IMG/VR virus record: IMGVR_UViG_3300048919_000040
Span: 1-39,882 of that record
Strand: one strand, 5' to 3'
DNA from: a virus
Length of the DNA: 39,882 nt
Every line of letters starts with the position of its first letter. Within the stretch, counting starts at the first letter, position 1. Shown piece by piece: positions 1,990 to 39,882 of this stretch. The notes under the pieces were generated by a model that had not been told where the DNA came from, searched no databases, and saw only the letters and a program-made list of their open reading frames with translations. Made by a program: the position numbers and the translations under genes.

Positions 1990-2203
1990 AGCTTTGTTAT
2001 TTTATAGGTAAAAGGAAAAACGGCGATGATGTTAAAGAACTTTTGCGCTTGCCGTTTTTCCGGCGTTCATTTAATCAATTTTTGGCTACTGCCGCCCCTG
2101 CCTTATTACCGGTCTCACGGGTGGATGAATGAATGAACTATGCAAATGTAAAAACTATTTTTTAATTGTGCAAATAAATTTACAAAAATTTTTAATTATT
2201 TTT

Positions 2204-2561: not shown

Positions 2562-2600
2562 AATGTTAAAGATCGTTTTAATTGTTTTACGCTTTATATA

Positions 2601-2617
2601 ATGCAAAGTGCGTGCCA
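2601..2617 (-). promoter_or_regulatory. Sigma-54 type -24/-12 promoter-like element (TGGCACGCACTTTGCAT)
   Basis: Minus-strand reading matches TGGCACG-N4-TTGCW at every conserved position. It lies about 40 nt upstream of the ATG at 2561 and is part of the 42-nt repeat 2576-2617. Confidence 0.6.
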
Positions 2618-2643
2618 AAGTGGATGAACCATAAAACTAAATG

Positions 2644-2955: not shown

Positions 2956-2989
2956 AATAAAAACTTTTAATTGTTTTACGCTTTATATA

Positions 2990-6905: not shown

Positions 6906-8201
6906 TTAACTTACTACTTCTTTGTTGCTATTGTCATTTCTTTGCTCTAGCATTAATGTAGCGCTTCTATCGGTGTCGTCGATTTTTACTAAGACTTGGC
7001 CAGTCTTAACGTTAATCGCGCCGGTATTATCGCTAGCTACCACGGTTACCGTAGTTACACCGCCAGTAGTTGTGCCTTTAGTTGCAGTAAATCCACTACC
7101 TGCTGCGTTAATACTTACCGTTGCGGTAGGGTCTTTAGTGATAATAGTAAAGGTGTGCGTTTCGCCGTCCACGTCAAAAATTAGATTGTTTGGTACAATT
7201 CTTAAATCATCGTTACCGGCTGGCATTCTATCGGCTGTGATAGCGTCCGACATAATTACGCATTCGTCAGCGAAAGGAATAGCAAAACCTAGTCTTAATT
7301 TACCGCGAATAAATACTTTACTATCGTGTGGCGCCGGGAATTGCCCTAGTTCGATGTCTTCTAAGTCGCTCATAAGGTCGGTTAGCAAAAGCGCGTTAGT
7401 TCCAATCATTGCGATAATGGTATTATCAATGTTGGTATAGCTTGTGGATTTAACCGGCACTAATTCCACGCCTTCGTAAAATACTTTAGGGTTACGTTTG
7501 TCGCCGTCGTCCAGCGTAAAGCTAGGGTAAAGTACTTGGTTTGATGCTTTCGCCAGCGCTCTACGAAGTTTTCTACGCGTACCGTAAGATACGAACATAT
7601 ACGCAATGCCACTATCTTCCGCTTGTAATACCGCTTCGGGTAGCGCGTCGTAAACTTCTTCTACTAACTCTAGCACGTTATTAACGGTGATCGTTTGCCC
7701 TTGTAGTTGAATTGCGTCAGGTGAAGAAAGCAACGTTTTAACCATACCGTTAAAATCGTTAGGGTCTTTAGTTTCGTCGCCCCCAATAATCATTTGTTCT
7801 ATCTCGTTAGATAGCCCAATTGCGATCAGCCAAAGCGTAGCCGCTTCTAGTTCGTCCGGTAATTCGTCGTTCTTAGCGCCCGGGCTAAGCATATACGCCG
7901 TACGTTTGTTTTCCAATTCGTCAATACATTGTTCGGTATTGATCTTATAGGTTTTTACGCGCGCCTTTTGTTCGCTTAATTTAATAAGCTGGTTTGGCGT
8001 CCATGCGCAATCTTTACCGTCGGCCTGTAAGATTTTATTTTCTAAGTCTATTTGGCTTAAAAGTTCTTCGCCCTTAATATCGGTAAGTACGCGGATGTAA
8101 CCGCCTTGCACTAATCTACCGCCATAGATGGAACGCGTAAACCATTCCATATTTTCGTGCGGCGTGTAAGATAAGCCGCTTATGTTATATACATTTGCCA
8201 T
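6906..8201 (-). CDS. Major capsid protein (putative, HK97-fold type) with a C-terminal Ig-like domain
   Basis: 431 aa, directly downstream of the protease/scaffold gene and followed by a strong terminator. The last ~100 aa (LRIVPNNLIFDVDGETHTFTI...VTTVTVVASDN...) look like an Ig-like or Big-type domain. Confidence 0.65.
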   Translation of the reverse strand: MANVYNISGLSYTPHENMEWFTRSIYGGRLVQGGYIRVLTDIKGEELLSQIDLENKILQADGKDCAWTPNQLIKLSEQKARVKTYKINTEQCIDELENKRTAYMLSPGAKNDELPDELEAATLWLIAIGLSNEIEQMIIGGDETKDPNDFNGMVKTLLSSPDAIQLQGQTITVNNVLELVEEVYDALPEAVLQAEDSGIAYMFVSYGTRRKLRRALAKASNQVLYPSFTLDDGDKRNPKVFYEGVELVPVKSTSYTNIDNTIIAMIGTNALLLTDLMSDLEDIELGQFPAPHDSKVFIRGKLRLGFAIPFADECVIMSDAITADRMPAGNDDLRIVPNNLIFDVDGETHTFTIITKDPTATVSINAAGSGFTATKGTTTGGVTTVTVVASDNTGAINVKTGQVLVKIDDTDRSATLMLEQRNDNSNKEVVS

Positions 8202-8226
8202 TATATGAGTATTTATTTTTTAATGA

Positions 8227-9396: not shown

Positions 9397-9637
9397 AAGA
9401 TAAAGATAAATTATATTGCGGGCGTCTGTAACTAAAACTAAATTTTTCTATAAATACGTAATTACCTGTATAAATAGGTAAAATAGGTATTTAATATTAC
9501 TTTTACATATTACTTAGTATTTTAGTTATTTAGTTACAAAGTGGTAAAAAATAGCCTATTCTATGAGGTTTGGCGCGTGTAACCAAATGCGCAACTAAAA
9601 CCACTTTGTAACTAAATTTTGGTTACGTGTAACTAAA
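9397..9637. promoter_or_regulatory. AT-rich intergenic region A with a TTT(G/A)GTTAC iteron array
   Basis: Motif copies at 9428, 9529, 9579, 9608, 9618 and 9629, in both orientations, plus a degenerate copy at 9591. There is a 14-bp inverted repeat at 9531-9544 / 9601-9614. A 41-nt block at 9499-9539 is 35/41 identical to 32114-32154. Confidence 0.6.
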
Positions 9638-16414: not shown

Positions 16415-18014
16415 TGGTATAGTTTTCGGATAATCTAAATTTAATTGTAGGTATGTGCATATTCTTTGTCTTCGGGTCTTTCTTTAATTCAAAATCTTCT
16501 ATAATAATGTATTCGCCGTTATTATTGAGTAGCACCCGGGCCGCTGCTAATTCCTTTAACCAATCCGCCACGCTATCACTAACGGGTGCGCCTACTATTG
16601 TAAACGGGTTCGCTAACGACGTGCTATATACCGTTTCTTGGCTATCTCCAATTTGATAGGCTGGTGTAATGGTTTTGTTAAATGTGGTGTTGCTTGGCTT
16701 AATTTCGTCGGTTATATCTGCGTCAAAATTAAAATTATCCCAACCGCCTAACCTGTTTAAGAATGTCATTTGCTGCAAGGTATGTAAGCAATCCGGTAAA
16801 ATATAATATTCCAAATCGTTAGATATAATAGATGACCCCCTAGCTAATGACACTTTAATAATTCCTGTTTTTGGATATGCGTCTAAAACCGTATCTATGT
16901 CAAGTACACAGGTATTAATTATGCTAAAATTTGCGCGCATTTGGTCGTGCGCGAATATTGTGCCTAAGTAATCGCCAGCCGTAGAGTATGCTCTATATGC
17001 CACTCGTATTGTGTAATCTATCGGGTTTGATAATCCGCGTTGTGTGTCCTTTAGAATAAAATTTATATATTCACGTTGGCCCCTTATATACGGTGTACGT
17101 GGTTTATTTGAAAGTAGTTTAACGGTACCTACGCCGTACACATATTCGGATAAATTAAGCGAATCGGATAATCGACCGTAACCATTAACCACATACAGTG
17201 CGTTAGATTGATAGAACGCAAACGAATTAATATTTTTAACTTTTGCGACAAATCTATATGCGCTTATTGAATTCGTGTTAAACCACCCGAAAGATGTAGG
17301 CGGTAATGTATACTCGGGATATTGGCCAAATAGCGCGTTGAGTTCAAACCAAAGCGGCGAACCTGAATACGTTTTACTAAGGGTCGTTAAGTAGTGGCCG
17401 ATTTTTGCCGGCGTAGTTGGTCTATCGTCTTCACCTAAAAATACTTGCGGGTCTACGTATACGTCTAACTCTATTTCGGCGGTATTTTGTTCGCCGCTTA
17501 TGCTATCATTATTAATTGATACCGGGTTAACGGTAGTTATAAGATATGCACTATTGCCGACATTATTAGGCGCGGTAACAATGATGTTAAACGCTGCGCC
17601 GGCTGCTTTAGACTTTATATTTATTGTTGACCCATTGGACGGCGTCGAGCCATTCCAAACGAAAGGCGTAACTATTTCAAAGTTTGATTTTATCCACGAA
17701 TCGGATAAAAGCGCTTGCCGTAAGTTTTCGGCCGTTTCGGAAACGTCAGACGAAATATAAAAAACGTTACCGCCAATTTCTGCGACATTAGTTGAGCCTT
17801 TAAATACGCGCGTTTCCCCGCCGGTAACGGCAATGTTTAGCGTCGATCTATTGGCCACATCCGGCGTAGTAGGCAGCATATTAATTTTTATATTTAATTC
17901 TAGCATTGTCTTTGTACTCGGCTTACTCGCAAACTGTACGAAGTTCTGAATAGCCGATAAACTTATTTCGTCCGGTTCCGTTATTACTGCTATATCTTTG
18001 CTTACATATCCCAT
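16407..18014 (-). CDS. Tail structural protein (putative)
   Basis: 535-aa ORF in the tail operon, overlapping the next gene by 8 nt. No motif recognised. Confidence 0.5.
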   Translation of the reverse strand: MGYVSKDIAVITEPDEISLSAIQNFVQFASKPSTKTMLELNIKINMLPTTPDVANRSTLNIAVTGGETRVFKGSTNVAEIGGNVFYISSDVSETAENLRQALLSDSWIKSNFEIVTPFVWNGSTPSNGSTINIKSKAAGAAFNIIVTAPNNVGNSAYLITTVNPVSINNDSISGEQNTAEIELDVYVDPQVFLGEDDRPTTPAKIGHYLTTLSKTYSGSPLWFELNALFGQYPEYTLPPTSFGWFNTNSISAYRFVAKVKNINSFAFYQSNALYVVNGYGRLSDSLNLSEYVYGVGTVKLLSNKPRTPYIRGQREYINFILKDTQRGLSNPIDYTIRVAYRAYSTAGDYLGTIFAHDQMRANFSIINTCVLDIDTVLDAYPKTGIIKVSLARGSSIISNDLEYYILPDCLHTLQQMTFLNRLGGWDNFNFDADITDEIKPSNTTFNKTITPAYQIGDSQETVYSTSLANPFTIVGAPVSDSVADWLKELAAARVLLNNNGEYIIIEDFELKKDPKTKNMHIPTIKFRLSENYTND

Positions 18015-19784: not shown

Positions 19785-19836
19785 AAAGTAGAGATAAAAC
19801 AGGCTATATTTATCTTTATCTTAAATAATATTAACA
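19785..19836. promoter_or_regulatory. 52-bp divergent control region between the tail operon and the portal operon
   Basis: Contains the inverted repeat AGATAAA...TTTATCT and two copies, one per strand, of the 15-nt late motif TTTATCTYTAYYTT. Confidence 0.5.
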
Positions 19837-22281: not shown

Positions 22282-22312
22282 TTTGGATTATTAAAAAATA
22301 GTATTATCTTTG
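22282..22312 (+). promoter_or_regulatory. Bacteroidota-type housekeeping promoter (TTTG-N19-TATCTTTG)
   Basis: TTTG at 22282-22285 and TATCTTTG at 22305-22312 match the -33 TTTG / -7 TAnnTTTG consensus with a 19-nt spacer. Confidence 0.45.
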
Positions 22313-22355: not shown

Positions 22356-22376
22356 AGCGCCTACGGGCGCTTTTTA
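22356..22376 (+). terminator. Rho-independent terminator
   Basis: Stem AGCGCC/GGCGCT (22356-22361 / 22366-22371) with loop TACG, followed by TTTTT. Confidence 0.75.
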
Positions 22377-22404
22377 AAAGTCTTTTTATGGTTCATCCAT
22401 CCAC

Positions 22405-22420
22405 TGGCACGACATTTGTA
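22405..22420 (+). promoter_or_regulatory. Sigma-54 type promoter-like element, near-consensus (TGGCACGACATTTGTA)
   Basis: The -24 half is perfect, and the -12 half is TTGT instead of TTGC. The downstream GTAAAACAATTAAAA and upstream GGTTCATCC..CCAC are shared with the minus-strand copy at 2576-2632. Confidence 0.45.
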
Positions 22421-22445
22421 TTAATGAGTAAAACAATTAAAAGAA

Positions 22446-22760
22446 ATGTATATTATGAAAACCGCAACAAAAGCAATCGTATTAACCGCCAAGGGCGAAG
22501 TAAACAAACATTTTAAAAATGCGCTAATGTGCGCAAGGTTCGACGAAGCGAATACCAAAATTTACCCGTGTAGCTGGATGAAGTCAGGCCGTAATTTTGC
22601 TTGCCGTGATAAAAGCGCGCTAATAACTAGCGTACTTAAAGCGCAAGGTTACAAGTTTGAAATAGGCAACGACGCACCAAAGGGCGGGCTAGAAGGTAAC
22701 TACATCAAAGTAAGTAAAACCGCGTTAGCATTTTTATTGCAGTTTAGAAAATGGAACTAA
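22446..22760 (+). CDS. hypothetical protein (104 aa; may start at 22455, MKTATK...)
   Basis: First ORF after the promoter-like element. No recognisable motif. Confidence 0.6.
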   Translation: MYIMKTATKAIVLTAKGEVNKHFKNALMCARFDEANTKIYPCSWMKSGRNFACRDKSALITSVLKAQGYKFEIGNDAPKGGLEGNYIKVSKTALAFLLQFRKWN

Positions 22761-22894
22761 AACGCCTATTTGCCTTAGAAGATGCTTTAATAGCGCAGTT
22801 GTTAGAAAGTTACGCCATTGGTGCGGTGCCGCGAAAAGCGGTTAAAGACGAATTAGCAACCGTTCAATTAAAAATAAAAAGCTTATGGAAATAG
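22751..22894 (+). CDS. hypothetical small protein (47 aa, not in the ORF track)
   Basis: I read it myself: ATG at 22751, MELKRLFALEDALIAQLLESYAIGAVPRKAVKDELATVQLKIKSLWK, stop at 22892-22894. It fills the gap between neighbours with overlaps at both ends. Confidence 0.4.
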   Translation: MELKRLFALEDALIAQLLESYAIGAVPRKAVKDELATVQLKIKSLWK

Positions 22895-23175
22895 CGACCT
22901 ATAAGTATCAGCGCAAAGAAGGGGTTTACCCCTTCACTGTGTTTGTTACCCACACAATGAAAGTAAAAATACTAGAAGATACCGGTAAGCGCTTGCGCAT
23001 AGAGTTCTTAGGCTACCACGCCGACGGACGAACACCGGGAACCGTTACCACCGTGGAGTATAAAAGCGTTAAGCGAATGGATGCGGCCAGCCGTTCCGGC
23101 AAGTCTGCAAACCTGCAAGACTATTTAGATACCTTAGACCCTGAATTAATTAGAAAACCCTATAAAGATGACTAG
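22885..23175 (+). CDS. hypothetical protein (96 aa)
   Basis: ORF in an operon-like tiling. No motif recognised. Confidence 0.6.
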   Translation: MEIATYKYQRKEGVYPFTVFVTHTMKVKILEDTGKRLRIEFLGYHADGRTPGTVTTVEYKSVKRMDAASRSGKSANLQDYLDTLDPELIRKPYKDD

Positions 23176-23734
23176 AAAAGAAGCCGACGCGCTAATATCG
23201 TATATCGAATTTTTAGCAGCATTAACCGAAGACTACGAACTAATGAACCGGCCGCCTATTTTATCGGCAACCTCAAACGACGGCGAAAATTGGAAGCCTT
23301 CAAATGTATTTCTAGGCGTAAAACCCAGCCCTATTATGGGTATGGACTTCGGAACTGAAAACCCTAGCGTAGCGGTGCAATCATGGCGCGACCAATTTAT
23401 CAGGTGGCACATAGAAGAAGCCGGCCCAATAGACCCGGAAGTATTCGCCAAGCTAAAAACCGCACATAAAAGACGCGGGCAAGACGTTACGCTAGGCGCG
23501 TTACTTAATATCGTAGCTAATGCGCCTAACTCTATGCTAGACTACTACCGAAAAGAAGATATTATAGCCTTTGGTAAAGTCGTTCGCGATTTGACTAGAT
23601 TAGAAATAGAATTTTCGGCAAGCCCTAAAGTGGAATATGTAGACGAAGGCGCGGGCAAAGAACATAAGGCCGTAGTGCTTTGGCCTAAGTTATCAGAAGA
23701 ATACGTATATTTACCAAAAGATTATAAACTATGA
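23168..23734 (+). CDS. hypothetical protein (188 aa)
   Basis: ORF overlapping both neighbours (8 nt and ATGA). No motif recognised. Confidence 0.65.
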   Translation: MTRKEADALISYIEFLAALTEDYELMNRPPILSATSNDGENWKPSNVFLGVKPSPIMGMDFGTENPSVAVQSWRDQFIRWHIEEAGPIDPEVFAKLKTAHKRRGQDVTLGALLNIVANAPNSMLDYYRKEDIIAFGKVVRDLTRLEIEFSASPKVEYVDEGAGKEHKAVVLWPKLSEEYVYLPKDYKL

Positions 23735-24015
23735 ATATCACAATAGAAGCCCCACAAGGCGCGGGCAAATCCACACAAACAAACCTTATCATAAACGCCA
23801 ATATGCCGGCTAACGTAGTGTACGCTAATGGCGACATAGATACGGCGCTAACCGACTTTTACGATAACCCGCCAGCCTTTGGCACAAACTTTGTAATAGT
23901 TGACGATATAAGAAGCGAAGCGCATTTAAAAGCCGCTAAGCGTAAAGTTAACGAATGGCGCCGCCGTAACGACGTCAATTTAAAAGCAATTTTTGAAATA
24001 CAAATAGGATTATGA
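23731..24015 (+). CDS. Mini P-loop protein (94 aa, thymidylate-kinase-like N-terminal motif)
   Basis: ITIEAPQGAGKSTQ resembles the Tmk/dNMP-kinase Walker A context (hEG..GaGKsTQ). FVIVDDI is Walker-B-like. The protein is far too short for a full kinase. Confidence 0.5.
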   Translation: MNITIEAPQGAGKSTQTNLIINANMPANVVYANGDIDTALTDFYDNPPAFGTNFVIVDDIRSEAHLKAAKRKVNEWRRRNDVNLKAIFEIQIGL

Positions 24016-24296
24016 AAACAGGAAAATTAAAAGGTGTTACCACCATAGAAGCCGCAGGTATAGTTATGCACTTAGGCGGCAAAACAATGCTATACCGAGA
24101 CGCCCCGCTATTGAATATTGCGCAGATCATAGACGTATGTAACGAAGCCGAAGCCAACGAAGCCGATAGCATACTATTCGATAAGGGTGCGCTATTTGAT
24201 CCGGCGGCCTACGAACTAGCGCGCGAAGCTGTTAAAGGTTTTGAAGAAAAATACCCGGACCAGCTTAAAGTAGTAATCTATAATATTGCGGAATGA
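24012..24296 (+). CDS. hypothetical protein (94 aa)
   Basis: ORF with ATGA overlaps on both sides. Confidence 0.6.
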   Translation: MKTGKLKGVTTIEAAGIVMHLGGKTMLYRDAPLLNIAQIIDVCNEAEANEADSILFDKGALFDPAAYELAREAVKGFEEKYPDQLKVVIYNIAE

Positions 24297-24541
24297 TGGG
24301 AAAACGAATTGAAGGTAACCCAGACTTAGCTTGCCCGGCACTACCACCAATACACTTGAAGCCGAAATTTAGTATCGGCCAATTTGTCTACCCTAGGGCT
24401 GACCCTGACCAATACCCGCGAATAATTACAGGACTCATAATTCGGCCGAACGAAATTATTAAATACTTGGCCTCTAATTACGATAACGAACGCGAATATG
24501 AAGCCTTTGAACTATCAGACGTTAAAACCTATGTACCATGA
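24293..24541 (+). CDS. hypothetical protein (82 aa)
   Basis: ORF with an ATGA overlap to the upstream gene. Confidence 0.6.
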   Translation: MMGKRIEGNPDLACPALPPIHLKPKFSIGQFVYPRADPDQYPRIITGLIIRPNEIIKYLASNYDNEREYEAFELSDVKTYVP

Positions 24542-24612
24542 GTAGAAAAAAAAAGGCGGACGATATAAAAGTAATAGGCTATACAGATTAGCTCGTTTAT
24601 TTGTTTTACAGT

Positions 24613-24637
24613 AGCGCGCTGCTTTGGCGCGCTTTTT
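24613..24637 (+). terminator. Rho-independent terminator
   Basis: Stem AGCGCGC/GCGCGCT (24613-24619 / 24627-24633) with a 7-nt loop, followed by TTTT. Confidence 0.7.
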
Positions 24638-24664
24638 GCATCAACTAATATAAATACTTACATT

Positions 24665-24889
24665 ATGACAATAGCAGTAATCGCAACATGTTACGCGGAC
24701 TTTAAAGAGTTTATTAGACGCACAGGAGCCGCGCCAGTGCTTACACCATTTCATTTCCATTGCGTTCTAAAAGAATCTGACATTCCCGGTATGGAATTTT
24801 GTTTTGTTTTACATACTCCATCTGCGGAATCGTTTTTGGCAAACTTTTGGAATTTACATGATATGTGTGTAAATCGCGTAATATCATGA
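24665..24889 (+). CDS. hypothetical protein (74 aa)
   Basis: ORF after the terminator and a short AT-rich leader. Confidence 0.55.
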   Translation: MTIAVIATCYADFKEFIRRTGAAPVLTPFHFHCVLKESDIPGMEFCFVLHTPSAESFLANFWNLHDMCVNRVIS

Positions 24890-25068
24890 GTAAACTATAT
24901 TCTAATTGCATATCGCTGGCAGTGCTGGCAAGACAAAAGCACGGCGCCGATAAAGTACGCGACATACTGCAAGCGCTCGGATATAAGAGCGTAACACAGA
25001 TCACAGACGCGCAAGACTTAATAGAACTACAAAAACGATTAAACAATTTATTATGGAAAAATACATAA
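24886..25068 (+). CDS. hypothetical protein (60 aa)
   Basis: Start moved to the ATG at 24886 (MSKLYS...), which forms an ATGA overlap with the upstream stop. Confidence 0.5.
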   Translation: MSKLYSNCISLAVLARQKHGADKVRDILQALGYKSVTQITDAQDLIELQKRLNNLLWKNT

Positions 25069-25310
25069 ACCTAACGACAAACACCGGTAGCACTGCGTCG
25101 ACGTTAACGATAGATGAAATCGGAGATTACAAAAATTTTAAATTTGAAAGTAGTAACCTCACACCGCGCCCAAAGCATGCGCCGGAAGAAAAGCCCAAAG
25201 TTTTAATCATGACACTTAGTGGCGAAGATGGCAGTTTAGAAATAAACGGTGTTAAATTAGAAGGTATTGCACTTACCTTATTTTTAGAATACATAAATCA
25301 GATAGTATGA
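25053..25310 (+). CDS. hypothetical protein (85 aa)
   Basis: ORF tiling with its neighbours. Confidence 0.55.
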   Translation: MEKYINLTTNTGSTASTLTIDEIGDYKNFKFESSNLTPRPKHAPEEKPKVLIMTLSGEDGSLEINGVKLEGIALTLFLEYINQIV

Positions 25311-25579
25311 AAATGACATTTAACGAATGGTTAAATTTACCCAATGTGCAAGCGCAACAAATAGACATAGACGCGCTACACGAAACTACTACCTTTAGAG
25401 TTACTAAGTTAATTAAAACCGGTAGGCGCGAAGAAGTTTTAAAGATACTTTCTAAATATGGAGTATTGCGACCAAGTAACCTACTAGATGATAAATTAAG
25501 TTATAAGCTATTTGCGGCCGAACTGCAAGCCAAAGTATGGTGCAAATATTACCCGCCAGCACCGGCGACCAATAAATAA
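25307..25579 (+). CDS. hypothetical protein (90 aa)
   Basis: Last ORF of the plus-strand block, with an ATGA overlap upstream and a terminator downstream. Confidence 0.6.
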   Translation: MKMTFNEWLNLPNVQAQQIDIDALHETTTFRVTKLIKTGRREEVLKILSKYGVLRPSNLLDDKLSYKLFAAELQAKVWCKYYPPAPATNK

Positions 25580-25583
25580 TAAA

Positions 25584-25604
25584 AGCCACCCGTGGGGGGT
25601 GGCT
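25584..25604. terminator. Bidirectional terminator between convergent transcription units
   Basis: Stem AGCCACCC/GGGTGGCT (25584-25591 / 25597-25604) with a 5-nt loop and T-rich tracts on both strands. It sits between the stops at 25579 (+) and 25613 (-). Confidence 0.75.
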
Positions 25605-25612
25605 TTACTGTT

Positions 25613-29225: not shown

Positions 29226-29491
29226 TTGGTAATAATGTATTTTGATTTAACATATAAGTAATTTAATAGGCCCGATATTAGCGCGATAACTAATAACAGG
29301 TAGAAGGCTTCGCCGTTTCGCGTCCAAGCAATTAGCGTGCCAAATATCAGGGTTAGCCAAAAGGCCAAACACCCGTAACAGTTAAACGGTTTTACCGGCA
29401 ACACTGCGCGGCCCGCCGTACCTAAATACGCTAACGCGTTGGAACCCAACACGTTAACGATTAATAGAATTATGATTTTATAGAAGTCCAT
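29222..29491 (-). CDS. Small membrane protein (89 aa, about 3 hydrophobic helices)
   Basis: Hydrophobic segments IIILLIVNVLGSNALAYL, CLAFWLTLIFGTLIAW and FYLLLVIALISGLLNYL. ATGA overlap with the downstream gene. Confidence 0.6.
   Translation of the reverse strand: MDFYKIIILLIVNVLGSNALAYLGTAGRAVLPVKPFNCYGCLAFWLTLIFGTLIAWTRNGEAFYLLLVIALISGLLNYLYVKSKYIITK
29327..29342 (-). promoter_or_regulatory. Sigma-54 consensus match inside a coding region (TGGCACGCTAATTGCT)
   Basis: The minus-strand reading matches TGGCACG-N4-TTGCW perfectly. It lies about 100 nt upstream of the ATG at 29225, which heads the 259-aa/terS/terL/lysis genes. It is not part of the 42-nt repeat. Confidence 0.3.
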
Positions 29492-29506
29492 AAGGTAAAG
29501 ATAAAA

Positions 29507-31960: not shown

Positions 31961-32253
31961 AGTTATTTACGTTTAGTTACAAATTTGGTTACACCTGTAA
32001 GTTATTAAGCTACATAGTGTTACGGTGTTTTGCCGTATCGTGTAACTTTGTAACCAAATTTTTTGTATACATTATTATATATAATATAAATTGTTTAAAT
32101 TGAATATTTATATACTTTTACTAATTACTATATATTTTAGTTATTTGGTTACAATATTCATAGAACATAGATAGGCAAAGGATTTGCGGCGTAACCAAAT
32201 TTGTAACCAAAATATAAATGTAACCAAAATTTAGTTACACCTATGTAACCAAA
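31961..32253. promoter_or_regulatory. AT-rich intergenic region B with a dense TTT(G/A)GTTAC iteron array (candidate origin or regulatory hub)
   Basis: Forward copies at 31972, 31984, 32144 and 32230. Reverse copies (GTAACCAAA) at 32050, 32191, 32203, 32220 and 32245, plus core-only copies. They flank an extremely AT-rich core at about 32058-32140. Confidence 0.6.
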
Positions 32254-39371: not shown

Positions 39372-39759
39372 TTGTCTTGCCGTTTGATCTTAATTGTACT
39401 ATTTGCCCTACCCATATACCTAGGTTAATGGCGTCTTGTTTGGTCGGTAGCGCGATGTCTAACATATACGTAAAGTCTTCGCCATTCATTGCGCTAGAAG
39501 TATACACTTTGCCCCCGTCGGTAGCCTTTGGCTGGCGATCTACACCACCAATAAAATATTTTAGTCCTAGCTTTTCTAGGTCTTCCGCTGCCTTATCTAT
39601 AATAGCGTGTATCATATCTGCGCGGCGGCTTTCGTCTATTTGCTGCGGGCTTGCTGCCAACGCTTCAATAGCTGGTTTTGTTTTACCTATGGCCTGTTTA
39701 CTTGGCCATACTTTTTTTGGTGTACCCTTGCGCGGGTCGTCCGGTTTTTTATCGTACAT
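39355..39759 (-). CDS. hypothetical protein (134 aa), tandem paralog 1
   Basis: In the circular map the ORF starts 2 nt after the exonuclease stop (TAAttATG). YFIGGVDRQPKATDGGKVYTSSAMNGEDFTYMLDIAL aligns with the 116-aa neighbour. Confidence 0.6.
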   Translation of the reverse strand: MYDKKPDDPRKGTPKKVWPSKQAIGKTKPAIEALAASPQQIDESRRADMIHAIIDKAAEDLEKLGLKYFIGGVDRQPKATDGGKVYTSSAMNGEDFTYMLDIALPTKQDAINLGIWVGQIVQLRSNGKTNEPQG

Positions 39760-39882
39760 AATTATAAAATGTCTTCGTCTTCTTCGCTGTAATCCTGTAC
39801 CTCATCATATCCCGATGAACCTACACTAATCGCGGGGCGGTCGTCGTCTTCGCTGGCTATTGCCGGTTTACCGTCGCTTTTA
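39756..39882. repeat. Terminal direct overlap, copy 2. It duplicates the 3' end of the exonuclease gene and the start codon region of the 134-aa gene.
   Basis: Identical to 1-127. Positions 39762-39882 repeat the C-terminal coding part of CDS 7..1263. Confidence 0.95.

Follow-up and report, generated by a model that had tools for sequence, protein, structure and literature searches.

Candidate sigma-54-type promoter elements in a conserved cassette ahead of the accessory genes of a phage

The virus record IMGVR_UViG_3300048919_000040 of IMG/VR was analysed over its full 39,882 nucleotides (nt), which are called the window here, and the subject of this text is a short sigma-54-type -24/-12 element on its plus strand, named copy C, together with similar elements in the same genome and in related phages (designated by L and a number). 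Copy C lies behind a gene of 165 amino acids (aa), classed as holin-like because PF05105 is found in some of its homologs, and in front of a block of small open reading frames (ORFs). From upstream to downstream, the features of this region are as follows.

22282 to 22312, plus strand: perfect Bacteroidota sigma-A-type promoter, TTTG (-33)-N19-TATCTTTG (-7), between the stop codon of the holin-like gene and the hairpin
22356 to 22375, plus strand: intrinsic-terminator hairpin AGCGCC-TACG-GGCGCT with a T-run, stem at 22356–22371, with compensatory changes in orthologs
22390 to 22404, plus strand: the GGTTCATCCATCCAC box, a family-wide element directly before copy C
22405 to 22421, plus strand: copy C, sigma-54-type -24/-12 element TGGCAC-GACAT-TTGTAT, supported by sequence, alignment, orthologs and matrix
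22428 to 22442, plus strand: conserved A-rich block GTAAAACAATTAAAA at the predicted transcription start, found exactly three times in the window and shared by L013 and L014
22446 to 24541, plus strand: first accessory transcription unit, 7 small ORFs, no significant family match
24613 to 24633, plus strand: hairpin terminator whose 3′ arm provides the -24 block of the element at 24625–24641
24625 to 24641, plus strand: second-subclass element TGGCGC-GCTTT-TTGCAT, 18.9 bits, top of 79,476 positions in the matrix scan, with homologs in L018–L021
24665 to 25579, plus strand: second accessory transcription unit, 4 small ORFs, ending at a bidirectional terminator (25582–25606)

When the sequence was re-read, copy C was found at the position and with the TTGT at -12 that an initial annotation had given, reading TGGCACGACATTTGTAT over 22405–22421 and TGGCACGACATTTGTA over 22405–22420. 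The same annotation had described about 12 small ORFs of unknown function in 22446–25579, all served by this element; 11 ORFs were counted, none of which (0/11) has a significant family match, and the terminator at 24613–24633 and the element at 24625–24641, which stands 23 nt before the ATG at 24665, split the block into 7 and 4 ORFs. Nor is copy C the only obvious promoter, as had been thought, because the perfect sigma-A promoter lies about 90 nt upstream of it, with the terminator in between, and the stronger sigma-54-type element lies at 24625–24641; that is to say, the block would have at least three promoters of two classes. The hairpin before copy C, formerly called a strong terminator, is a real and conserved hairpin with a T-run, but it is short: its stem of 6 bp is followed by 4–5 Ts, and it was missed by the terminator scan because 6 bp with 4 free Ts falls below the threshold. 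It is taken as real because orthologs show compensatory changes that keep the stem, namely AGGCGC/GCGCCT in L019 and AGCGGC/GCCGCT in L020.

The window contains at least four intergenic copies of the element, one more than the three previously listed. Copy C has the form GG-N10-GT, while copies A and B and the element at 24625 have GG-N10-GC.

2601 to 2617, minus strand: copy A, TGGCAC-GCACT-TTGCAT, 17.5 bits, orthologs in L011, L014, L015 and L016
2990 to 3006, minus strand: copy B, TGGCAC-GCGCT-TTGCAT, 17.0 bits, ortholog at L014 1748

Copies A and B are 98% identical over 42 nt. Copy A is preceded by a hairpin (2649–2664) and a box (2620–2630) and heads a conserved 109-aa gene (2232–2561), and copy B follows directly on the stop codon of a 683-aa peptidase gene and heads a 94-aa gene (2671–2955). 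In the alignment of copies A, B and C, conservation runs from TGGCAC to the start codon, and the 15-nt downstream block is identical at 2576–2590 (minus), 2965–2979 (minus) and 22428–22442 (plus), which are its only three occurrences. The minus-strand stretch 2576–2632 reads GGTTCATCCAC-TT-TGGCACGCACTTTGCAT and carries this same downstream block, and the upstream-flank sequence TATGGTTCATCCA is common to copy C and 2621–2633 (minus). Of the flank homology claimed for these two places, the identical downstream 15-mer and the shared upstream sequence were both found, but the upstream flank is the family-wide box and is not specific to them. The transcription start of copy C is predicted at about 22431–22432, 12–13 nt past the -12 block, and in all three copies the conserved A-rich block GTAAAACAATT starts at the predicted position. 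The reverse complement of the leader block GTAAAACAATTAA was also seen at 24595–24609 (minus), at about 9935 in L018 and at about 10228 in L019, about 17 nt upstream of second-subclass elements, and the block is similar to the 3′ portion of the spacer in the sigma-A promoter (TTGTTTTACATTTG); it may therefore be more than a leader, namely a binding site or a piece of the cassette moved by recombination.

The pattern TGGCAC-N5-TTGC occurs three times exactly in the window against 0.05 expected, and ten times with at most one mismatch against 1.8 expected. All four intergenic elements fall within the 4% of the window that is non-coding (1,572 nt), are gene-oriented and lie 23–41 nt before an ATG. 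Over 320 kb, the relaxed pattern gave 27 matches against 4.1 expected, and 18 of the 27 are intergenic, co-oriented with the next gene and 11–41 nt from its ATG. A weight matrix was built from 149 Escherichia coli sigma-54 motifs obtained by chromatin immunoprecipitation sequencing (PMC4591121, Table S2). The top four of the 79,476 window positions were 24624 (plus, 18.9 bits), 2618 (minus, copy A, 17.5 bits), 29343 (minus, 17.3 bits) and 3007 (minus, copy B, 17.0 bits), three of them intergenic and the one at 29343 inside a gene. The E. coli sites themselves, scored by leave-one-out, reach 12.4 bits at the median and 17.1 bits at most, and when 100 shuffled genomes were scanned, the top score per genome was 14.3 bits at the median and 16.6 bits at the 95th percentile; across 323 kb of relatives, 9 of 11 matches of at least 15 bits are the intergenic elements described here. 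Copy C (22404, plus) scores 12.9 bits and ranks ninth; its TTGT is penalised by the E. coli matrix, and the ortholog in L018, which has TTGC, reaches 19.1 bits. On these sequence data it is context and conservation that make copy C significant, and the match by itself does not.

Relatives were gathered without use of the motif, via homologs of the portal, the capsid protein, the 109-aa protein and the holin-like protein, and those that carry the element at the same two loci have 58–91% protein identity. Retrieval through the 683-aa protein gave none, through the exonuclease one distant locus and through the capsid protein one locus, and a metagenome scan, mostly with low-complexity N-terminal peptide patterns, found only the contig of L011. 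In IMG/VR, the exact element-plus-leader pattern had no match, and the composite box-plus-element pattern had the contig of L011 as its one real match, besides four chance matches in coding DNA. Among the relatives, the element reads [T/C]GGC[A/G]C-N5-TTG[C/T]A[T/C] at the same two loci. TGGCAC-N5-TTG[C/T]A[T/C] stands upstream of every homolog of the 109-aa gene that was retrieved, and at the junction after the holin-like gene the element is present in all four close relatives (L018–L021).

L011, 12407: element at the 109-aa locus
L014, 1748 and 2130: two elements at the 109-aa locus, as in the window
L015, 5953: element at the 109-aa locus
L016, 5956: element at the 109-aa locus
L018 (closest relative, TTGC): copy C ortholog, TGGCACGACATTTGCAT
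L019: copy C ortholog, CGGCACGGAGTTTGCAT
L020: copy C ortholog, CGGCACGAAATTTGTAT
L021: copy C ortholog, TGGCGCGCCATTTGCAT

The alignment of the three copies with related phages, which had been proposed as a check, was thus run, and both blocks proved invariant and the spacer variable at the same two loci; the central proposal, that a conserved, gene-oriented, intergenic motif of -24/-12 type heads the accessory block, is borne out by its presence at the same junction in L018–L021. A second subclass, TGGCGCGC(N3)TTG[C/T]AT, in which the 3′ arm of a terminator hairpin is the -24 block, lies inside the accessory blocks of the window (24625–24641), L018, L019, L020 and L021. Taken together, the 18 intergenic gene-oriented elements give (T15/C3)GGC(A11/G7)C(G15/A3)-N3-(T17)TTG(C12/T6)A(T15/C3), where GG, C, C, TTG and A are invariant. 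The GG-N10-G spacing is held in 18/18; the spacer is constant in length and its five bases vary (GCACT, GCGCT, GACAT, AGCGT, AGCAT, ACGAA, GGAGT and GAAAT were seen). L016 has AATTGC, and therefore what is conserved is TTGC and not the TTTG of sigma-A promoters.

The element is part of a cassette with a regular order: a sigma-A promoter, 20–45 non-conserved nt, the hairpin terminator, about 15 nt, the box, 0–7 nt, the -24/-12 element, a short leader that lacks a Shine-Dalgarno site, and the ATG. This cassette is conserved at the copy C locus in L018–L020 and at the 109-aa locus in L011, L015 and L016. The box has the consensus GG(T/C)(T/C)CAT(Y)CA(YY)CA(C) and at least 16 copies in the window and its relatives, all intergenic and gene-oriented, each either just past the -7 box of a sigma-A promoter or just before the -24 block of a sigma-54-type element. 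The sigma-A promoter at 22282–22312 occurs in the same place in L018, L019, L020 and L021 and is homologous to a second one on the other strand.

2121 to 2174, minus strand: second perfect sigma-A promoter (2143–2174), then a box (2121–2138), conserved in L011, L013, L014 and L016

The promoter at 2143–2174 is likely the early promoter of the replication module. After it and its box, a conserved leader of about 150 nt precedes a 64-aa gene (window 1990–2142, minus; L011 13200–13335; L014 about 2625–2760); this leader contains GAACGCCGGAAAAACGGCAAGCG ... ATCGCCGTTTTTCC, has the look of an attenuator or alternative hairpin, and has no Rfam match. In L018, a structured insert of about 110 nt (7445–7565), absent from the window, separates the sigma-54-type element from the first accessory ORF; a 13-bp stem closes it, it includes a GCGGTTCGATTCCGC that resembles a tRNA T arm, and neither ARAGORN nor Rfam calls it. 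No known RNA was found by Rfam or ARAGORN.

The host of the phage is almost certainly a member of the Bacteroidota, judging from sequence, because Shine-Dalgarno sites are absent from the window genes, perfect TAnnTTTG promoters are present and relatives of the portal lie in Bacteroidales assemblies. Exact matches to TTTG-N17-21-TAnnTTTG are only two genome-wide, 2143–2174 (minus) and 22282–22312 (plus), both intergenic, and the portal relatives are found in an isolate assembly of Bacteroides stercorirosoris (39.3-kb contig) and in Rikenellaceae and Salinivirgaceae metagenome-assembled genomes. The isolate contig, L023, is NZ_FQZN01000044.1, a contig of 39,338 bp from strain DSM 26884 with a portal 64% identical to that of the window, which suggests that a cultured Bacteroides strain carries or propagates a member of the phage family and is hence a potential experimental system. 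Sigma-54 is present in Flavobacterium and Bacteroides (PMC9723704, PMC12316311). In Flavobacterium psychrophilum SM4, mapped sigma-54 promoters have the consensus TGGCACGnnnnTTGC, with A, T or C after the TTG at -12 (PMC9723704 and its supplement); since the base after TTG is relaxed there, the TTGT of copy C fits the host type. The sigma-54 regulon of F. psychrophilum includes groES/EL, dnaK, grpE/dnaJ, htpG, clpB, lon, skp and gliding genes (PMC9723704), and the same trend is seen in Bacteroidota (PMC12316311).

In terms of sequence, every feature of a sigma-54 promoter that could be tested is found here, and it is probable that the elements, of which the genome has at least four, truly are promoters that depend on host sigma-54 and form part of a modular cassette. 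This reading is based on the consensus match, the matrix scores, the enrichment, the orthologous conservation at two loci, the TTGT of Bacteroidota type, the lack of a competing polymerase and the precedent of phage YuA. Host RNA polymerase with sigma-54 would bind TGGCAC (GG at -24) and TTG[C/T] (-12), and transcription would start 12–13 nt after the -12 block, at the A-rich block near 22431, once a host enhancer-binding ATPase has opened the promoter complex. Pfam and PHROG scans of all phage ORFs recognised no RNA polymerase, no sigma factor and no AAA+ enhancer-binding protein (PF00158-type or other), so that a host activator, possibly one that does not bind DNA, would be required. With the terminator as insulation against the portal–holin operon and the sigma-A promoter, the accessory genes would be controlled chiefly by sigma-54 and receive at most low early read-through. 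The trigger is presumed to be host proteotoxic or envelope stress during infection, because the Flavobacterium sigma-54 regulon consists of chaperone/protease and envelope-stress genes. The unstructured A-rich leader would suit the Shine-Dalgarno-independent initiation of the Bacteroidota, in which, according to PMC6847099, translation starts without use of that site.

Several observations weigh against this reading. A search for shared enhancer sites (upstream activating sequences) or dyad 9-mers upstream of the 18 elements yielded nothing beyond parts of the box, of the hairpin and of the sigma-A promoter. The element is absent near the portal in the distant relatives L001–L009 and L023–L026, including the Bacteroides isolate contig, and is accordingly regarded as a feature of a subclade. 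The -24 block of the second subclass is the 3′ arm of a terminator, which could explain its G+C-rich conservation without sigma-54; the -12 block, TTTG[C/T]A, is similar to the core of the sigma-A -7 box, which is TAnnTTTG[C/T]A in these phages; the box also follows sigma-A promoters (2–13 nt after their -7 boxes) in relatives without sigma-54-type elements; and the 12.9 bits of copy C, though typical of true sites, are within the chance range for this genome.

Other explanations were considered. The element might be a promoter for another form of polymerase, either a sigma-A holoenzyme, redirected by the phage in the manner of T4 MotA/AsiA, or a holoenzyme with some other host sigma factor; TTTG[C/T]AT would then be a weakened -7 box, TGGCAC and/or the GGTTCAT box would provide upstream recognition, and the start would lie about 6–7 nt past TTTG. 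The similarity of the -12 block to the bona fide sigma-A boxes of these phages, the TTTG in 17/18 elements and the company that the box keeps with sigma-A promoters elsewhere all fit this view, and a redirecting factor could be encoded among the many uncharacterised small ORFs. We consider it unlikely, since the TA of TAnnTTTG is missing in 18/18 elements, no TTTG stands at -33, L016 has ATTG, and copy B, if functional at all, functions without a box; the view moreover needs a coincidental match of 11–12 nt to sigma-54 promoters with exact GG-N10-G and scores above most true E. coli sites.

That the element is not a promoter at all, being instead an operator, an RNA element in the 5′ untranslated region of a sigma-A read-through transcript or, for the 24625 subclass, a terminator arm with its T-run, is quite improbable, although most cassettes have a perfect sigma-A promoter upstream, L021 has no hairpin between that promoter and the element, which would therefore be transcribed, and the second subclass overlaps a terminator. 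Sigma-54 holoenzyme makes stable closed complexes, and these could be roadblocks and not starts. Against this, what adjoins copies A and B on the upstream side is a terminator or coding region and not a sigma-A promoter, no conserved RNA pairing and no Rfam match were found at the element, and two conserved blocks around a variable spacer of fixed length indicate a two-part protein contact, which fits polymerase better than RNA structure. As for copy C itself, the score within the chance range, the TTGT in place of TTGC and the flanks, which are clearly recombined cassette pieces, could point to a chance near-match or a functionless relic decaying after recombination with the 2576–2632 region; this is highly improbable, because the element is kept at the orthologous junction in four relatives despite diverging surroundings, with TTGC and 19.1 bits in L018, and because TTGT is common in mapped Flavobacterium sigma-54 promoters. 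Among other promoter types, sigma-70 -35/-10 promoters were scanned for without enrichment (20 against 16.8 expected), a type irrelevant for a Bacteroidota host. Promoters of a T7-like single-subunit polymerase were ruled out, as PHROG and Pfam scans found no RNA polymerase gene; the sigma-54-type intergenic elements are restricted to the fronts of accessory genes, unlike a T7-like promoter repeated over the genome.

The sigma-54 reading can be set beside known systems. The bacterial consensus is reportedly YTGGCACGrNNNTTGCW (Barrios et al. 1999), and the one compiled above from the 18 elements agrees with it. The phage elements share with bacterial sigma-54 promoters the two blocks, the GG-N10-G[C/T] spacing, the position just upstream of genes and scores that equal or exceed those of most bound E. 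coli sites; they differ in being predictions from sequence in a phage genome, in the GGTTCAT box that abuts the -24 block, in the overlap of one subclass with a terminator, and in that no enhancer site or activator is identifiable in the phage. The promoters of F. psychrophilum SM4 are of the same Bacteroidota host type and, like copy C, relaxed at the last base of -12 (TTGT, TTGA), but they are chromosomal and have mapped starts and support from mutagenesis, and they match the consensus less strictly than the phage elements do. Bacteroidota sigma-A promoters (-33 TTTG / -7 TAnnTTTG) resemble the elements in the TTTG[C/T]A of the -12 block, but the elements lack the TA and the -33 TTTG and have TGGCAC instead.

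Phage morons are autonomous promoter–gene–terminator units between the core genes of lambdoid phages. By its sequence, the accessory block is moron-like: it has its own promoters and terminators and its presence varies among syntenic relatives, being absent in L008 and L009 and different in content in L004 and L018–L021. Unlike classic morons, which use sigma-70 and are usually expressed from a prophage, it has sigma-54-type promoters, and no lysogeny genes are apparent in this phage. According to two sources that cite Ceyssens et al. 2008 (PMC5053324, PMC10914365), the Pseudomonas aeruginosa phage YuA has a sigma-54-like promoter region and its development depends on host sigma-54; the use of host sigma-54 by a phage, predicted here from sequence, is common to both, but YuA is an unrelated siphovirus of a proteobacterial host with one or few such promoters, and here there is a multi-copy modular cassette with accessory genes. 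Sigma-54 use by phages is called rare but not unprecedented, YuA being essentially the sole documented case, and no report of it in Bacteroidota phages was found in the literature searched; that is to say, the promoter class is known, and the cassette organisation and the box are the new details.

Almost nothing is known about the timing of gene expression in phages of the Bacteroidota, which are major gut and aquatic bacteria. If the sigma-54 reading is true, the expression of accessory genes would require a host activator ATPase and, through it, a host signal, probably the chaperone/envelope-stress response, which would be a concrete and testable link from host physiology to phage gene expression; rpoN or the activator would be a candidate host factor for resistance, and the cassette would supply compact, well-defined regulatory parts for Bacteroidota genetics. 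Going further, one may speculate that, in a subclade of Bacteroidota phages, a mobile modular cassette, with no regulator from the phage, plugs accessory genes, and possibly packaging and lysis through the site at 29328, into the host sigma-54 stress regulon; the host response to phage-induced proteotoxic stress would then be a timer for the genes that the cassette drives, and the box would be a possible shared operator that shuts sigma-A promoters and helps sigma-54 ones. We hold this wider proposal only tentatively and think it rather unlikely as a whole.

The site at 29328 is inside a coding region, as follows.

29328 to 29342, minus strand: exact TGGCACGCTAATTGC inside an 89-aa ORF, 17.3 bits

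It lies 102 nt upstream of a 259-aa gene leading into the terminase, amidase/lysis and DUF6808 genes, and could, with some uncertainty, be a sigma-54-type promoter for packaging and lysis; no counterpart was found at the equivalent place in L003, L004 and L021, the relatives covering the region. In addition, TGGCACAAACTTTGT stands at 23880–23894 (plus) inside an nSTAND3-like ORF, 117 nt before the next ORF, and L018 has TGGCAC-N5-TTGC with a different spacer at the same coding position (9300), so an internal promoter is possible. A further coding match, GTGGC[A/G]CG-N4-TTGCGC (15.3–15.7 bits), is conserved inside the 3′ end of the SNF2-helicase gene at 16646–16663 (minus) in L008 and 17203–17220 (minus) in L009, which otherwise have no intergenic sigma-54-type elements. 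For the 109-aa protein behind copy A, no Pfam or PHROG match was obtained, and its AlphaFold model (predicted local distance difference test score 82) had no significant fold match in the PDB; the guess that it is a GroES-like co-chaperonin was dropped as unsupported by fold or family.

As for the genome as a whole, self-comparison showed that positions 1–127 are an exact direct repeat of 39756–39882, and because this terminal 127-nt repeat is taken as assembly overlap, the window is read as a circular assembly of about 39,755 bp, with genes spanning its ends. Pfam and PHROG scans identified a portal, a capsid-like protein, a protease, terminase subunits and an amidase and, for replication, a family-A DNA polymerase, a primase-helicase, a single-stranded DNA-binding protein and an exonuclease. 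Nucleotide and capsid-protein searches against GenBank phages gave no match to a cultured phage.

The two largest intergenic regions, 9397–9632 and 31961–32240, share repeat arrays of the GTAACCAAAT / TTTGGTTAC type in both orientations, upstream of protease/capsid and nuclease/helicase genes, and L008 carries TTGGTTGT arrays; the arrays in the window may be regulator-binding sites or origin iterons. The motif TTTATCTTTA(T/C)CTT is found at 8202–8226, 19785–19836 and 29492–29506, immediately ahead of the start codons of two genes (protease/scaffold and 89-aa) and also in the 52 nt that separate the divergent portal and 242-aa genes, and it may represent a third promoter or leader class that yields near-leaderless mRNAs. 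Finally, imperfect tandem GCTGC-rich repeats at 1535–1693, inside a 166-aa ORF on the minus strand, give rise to a low-complexity segment of the protein.

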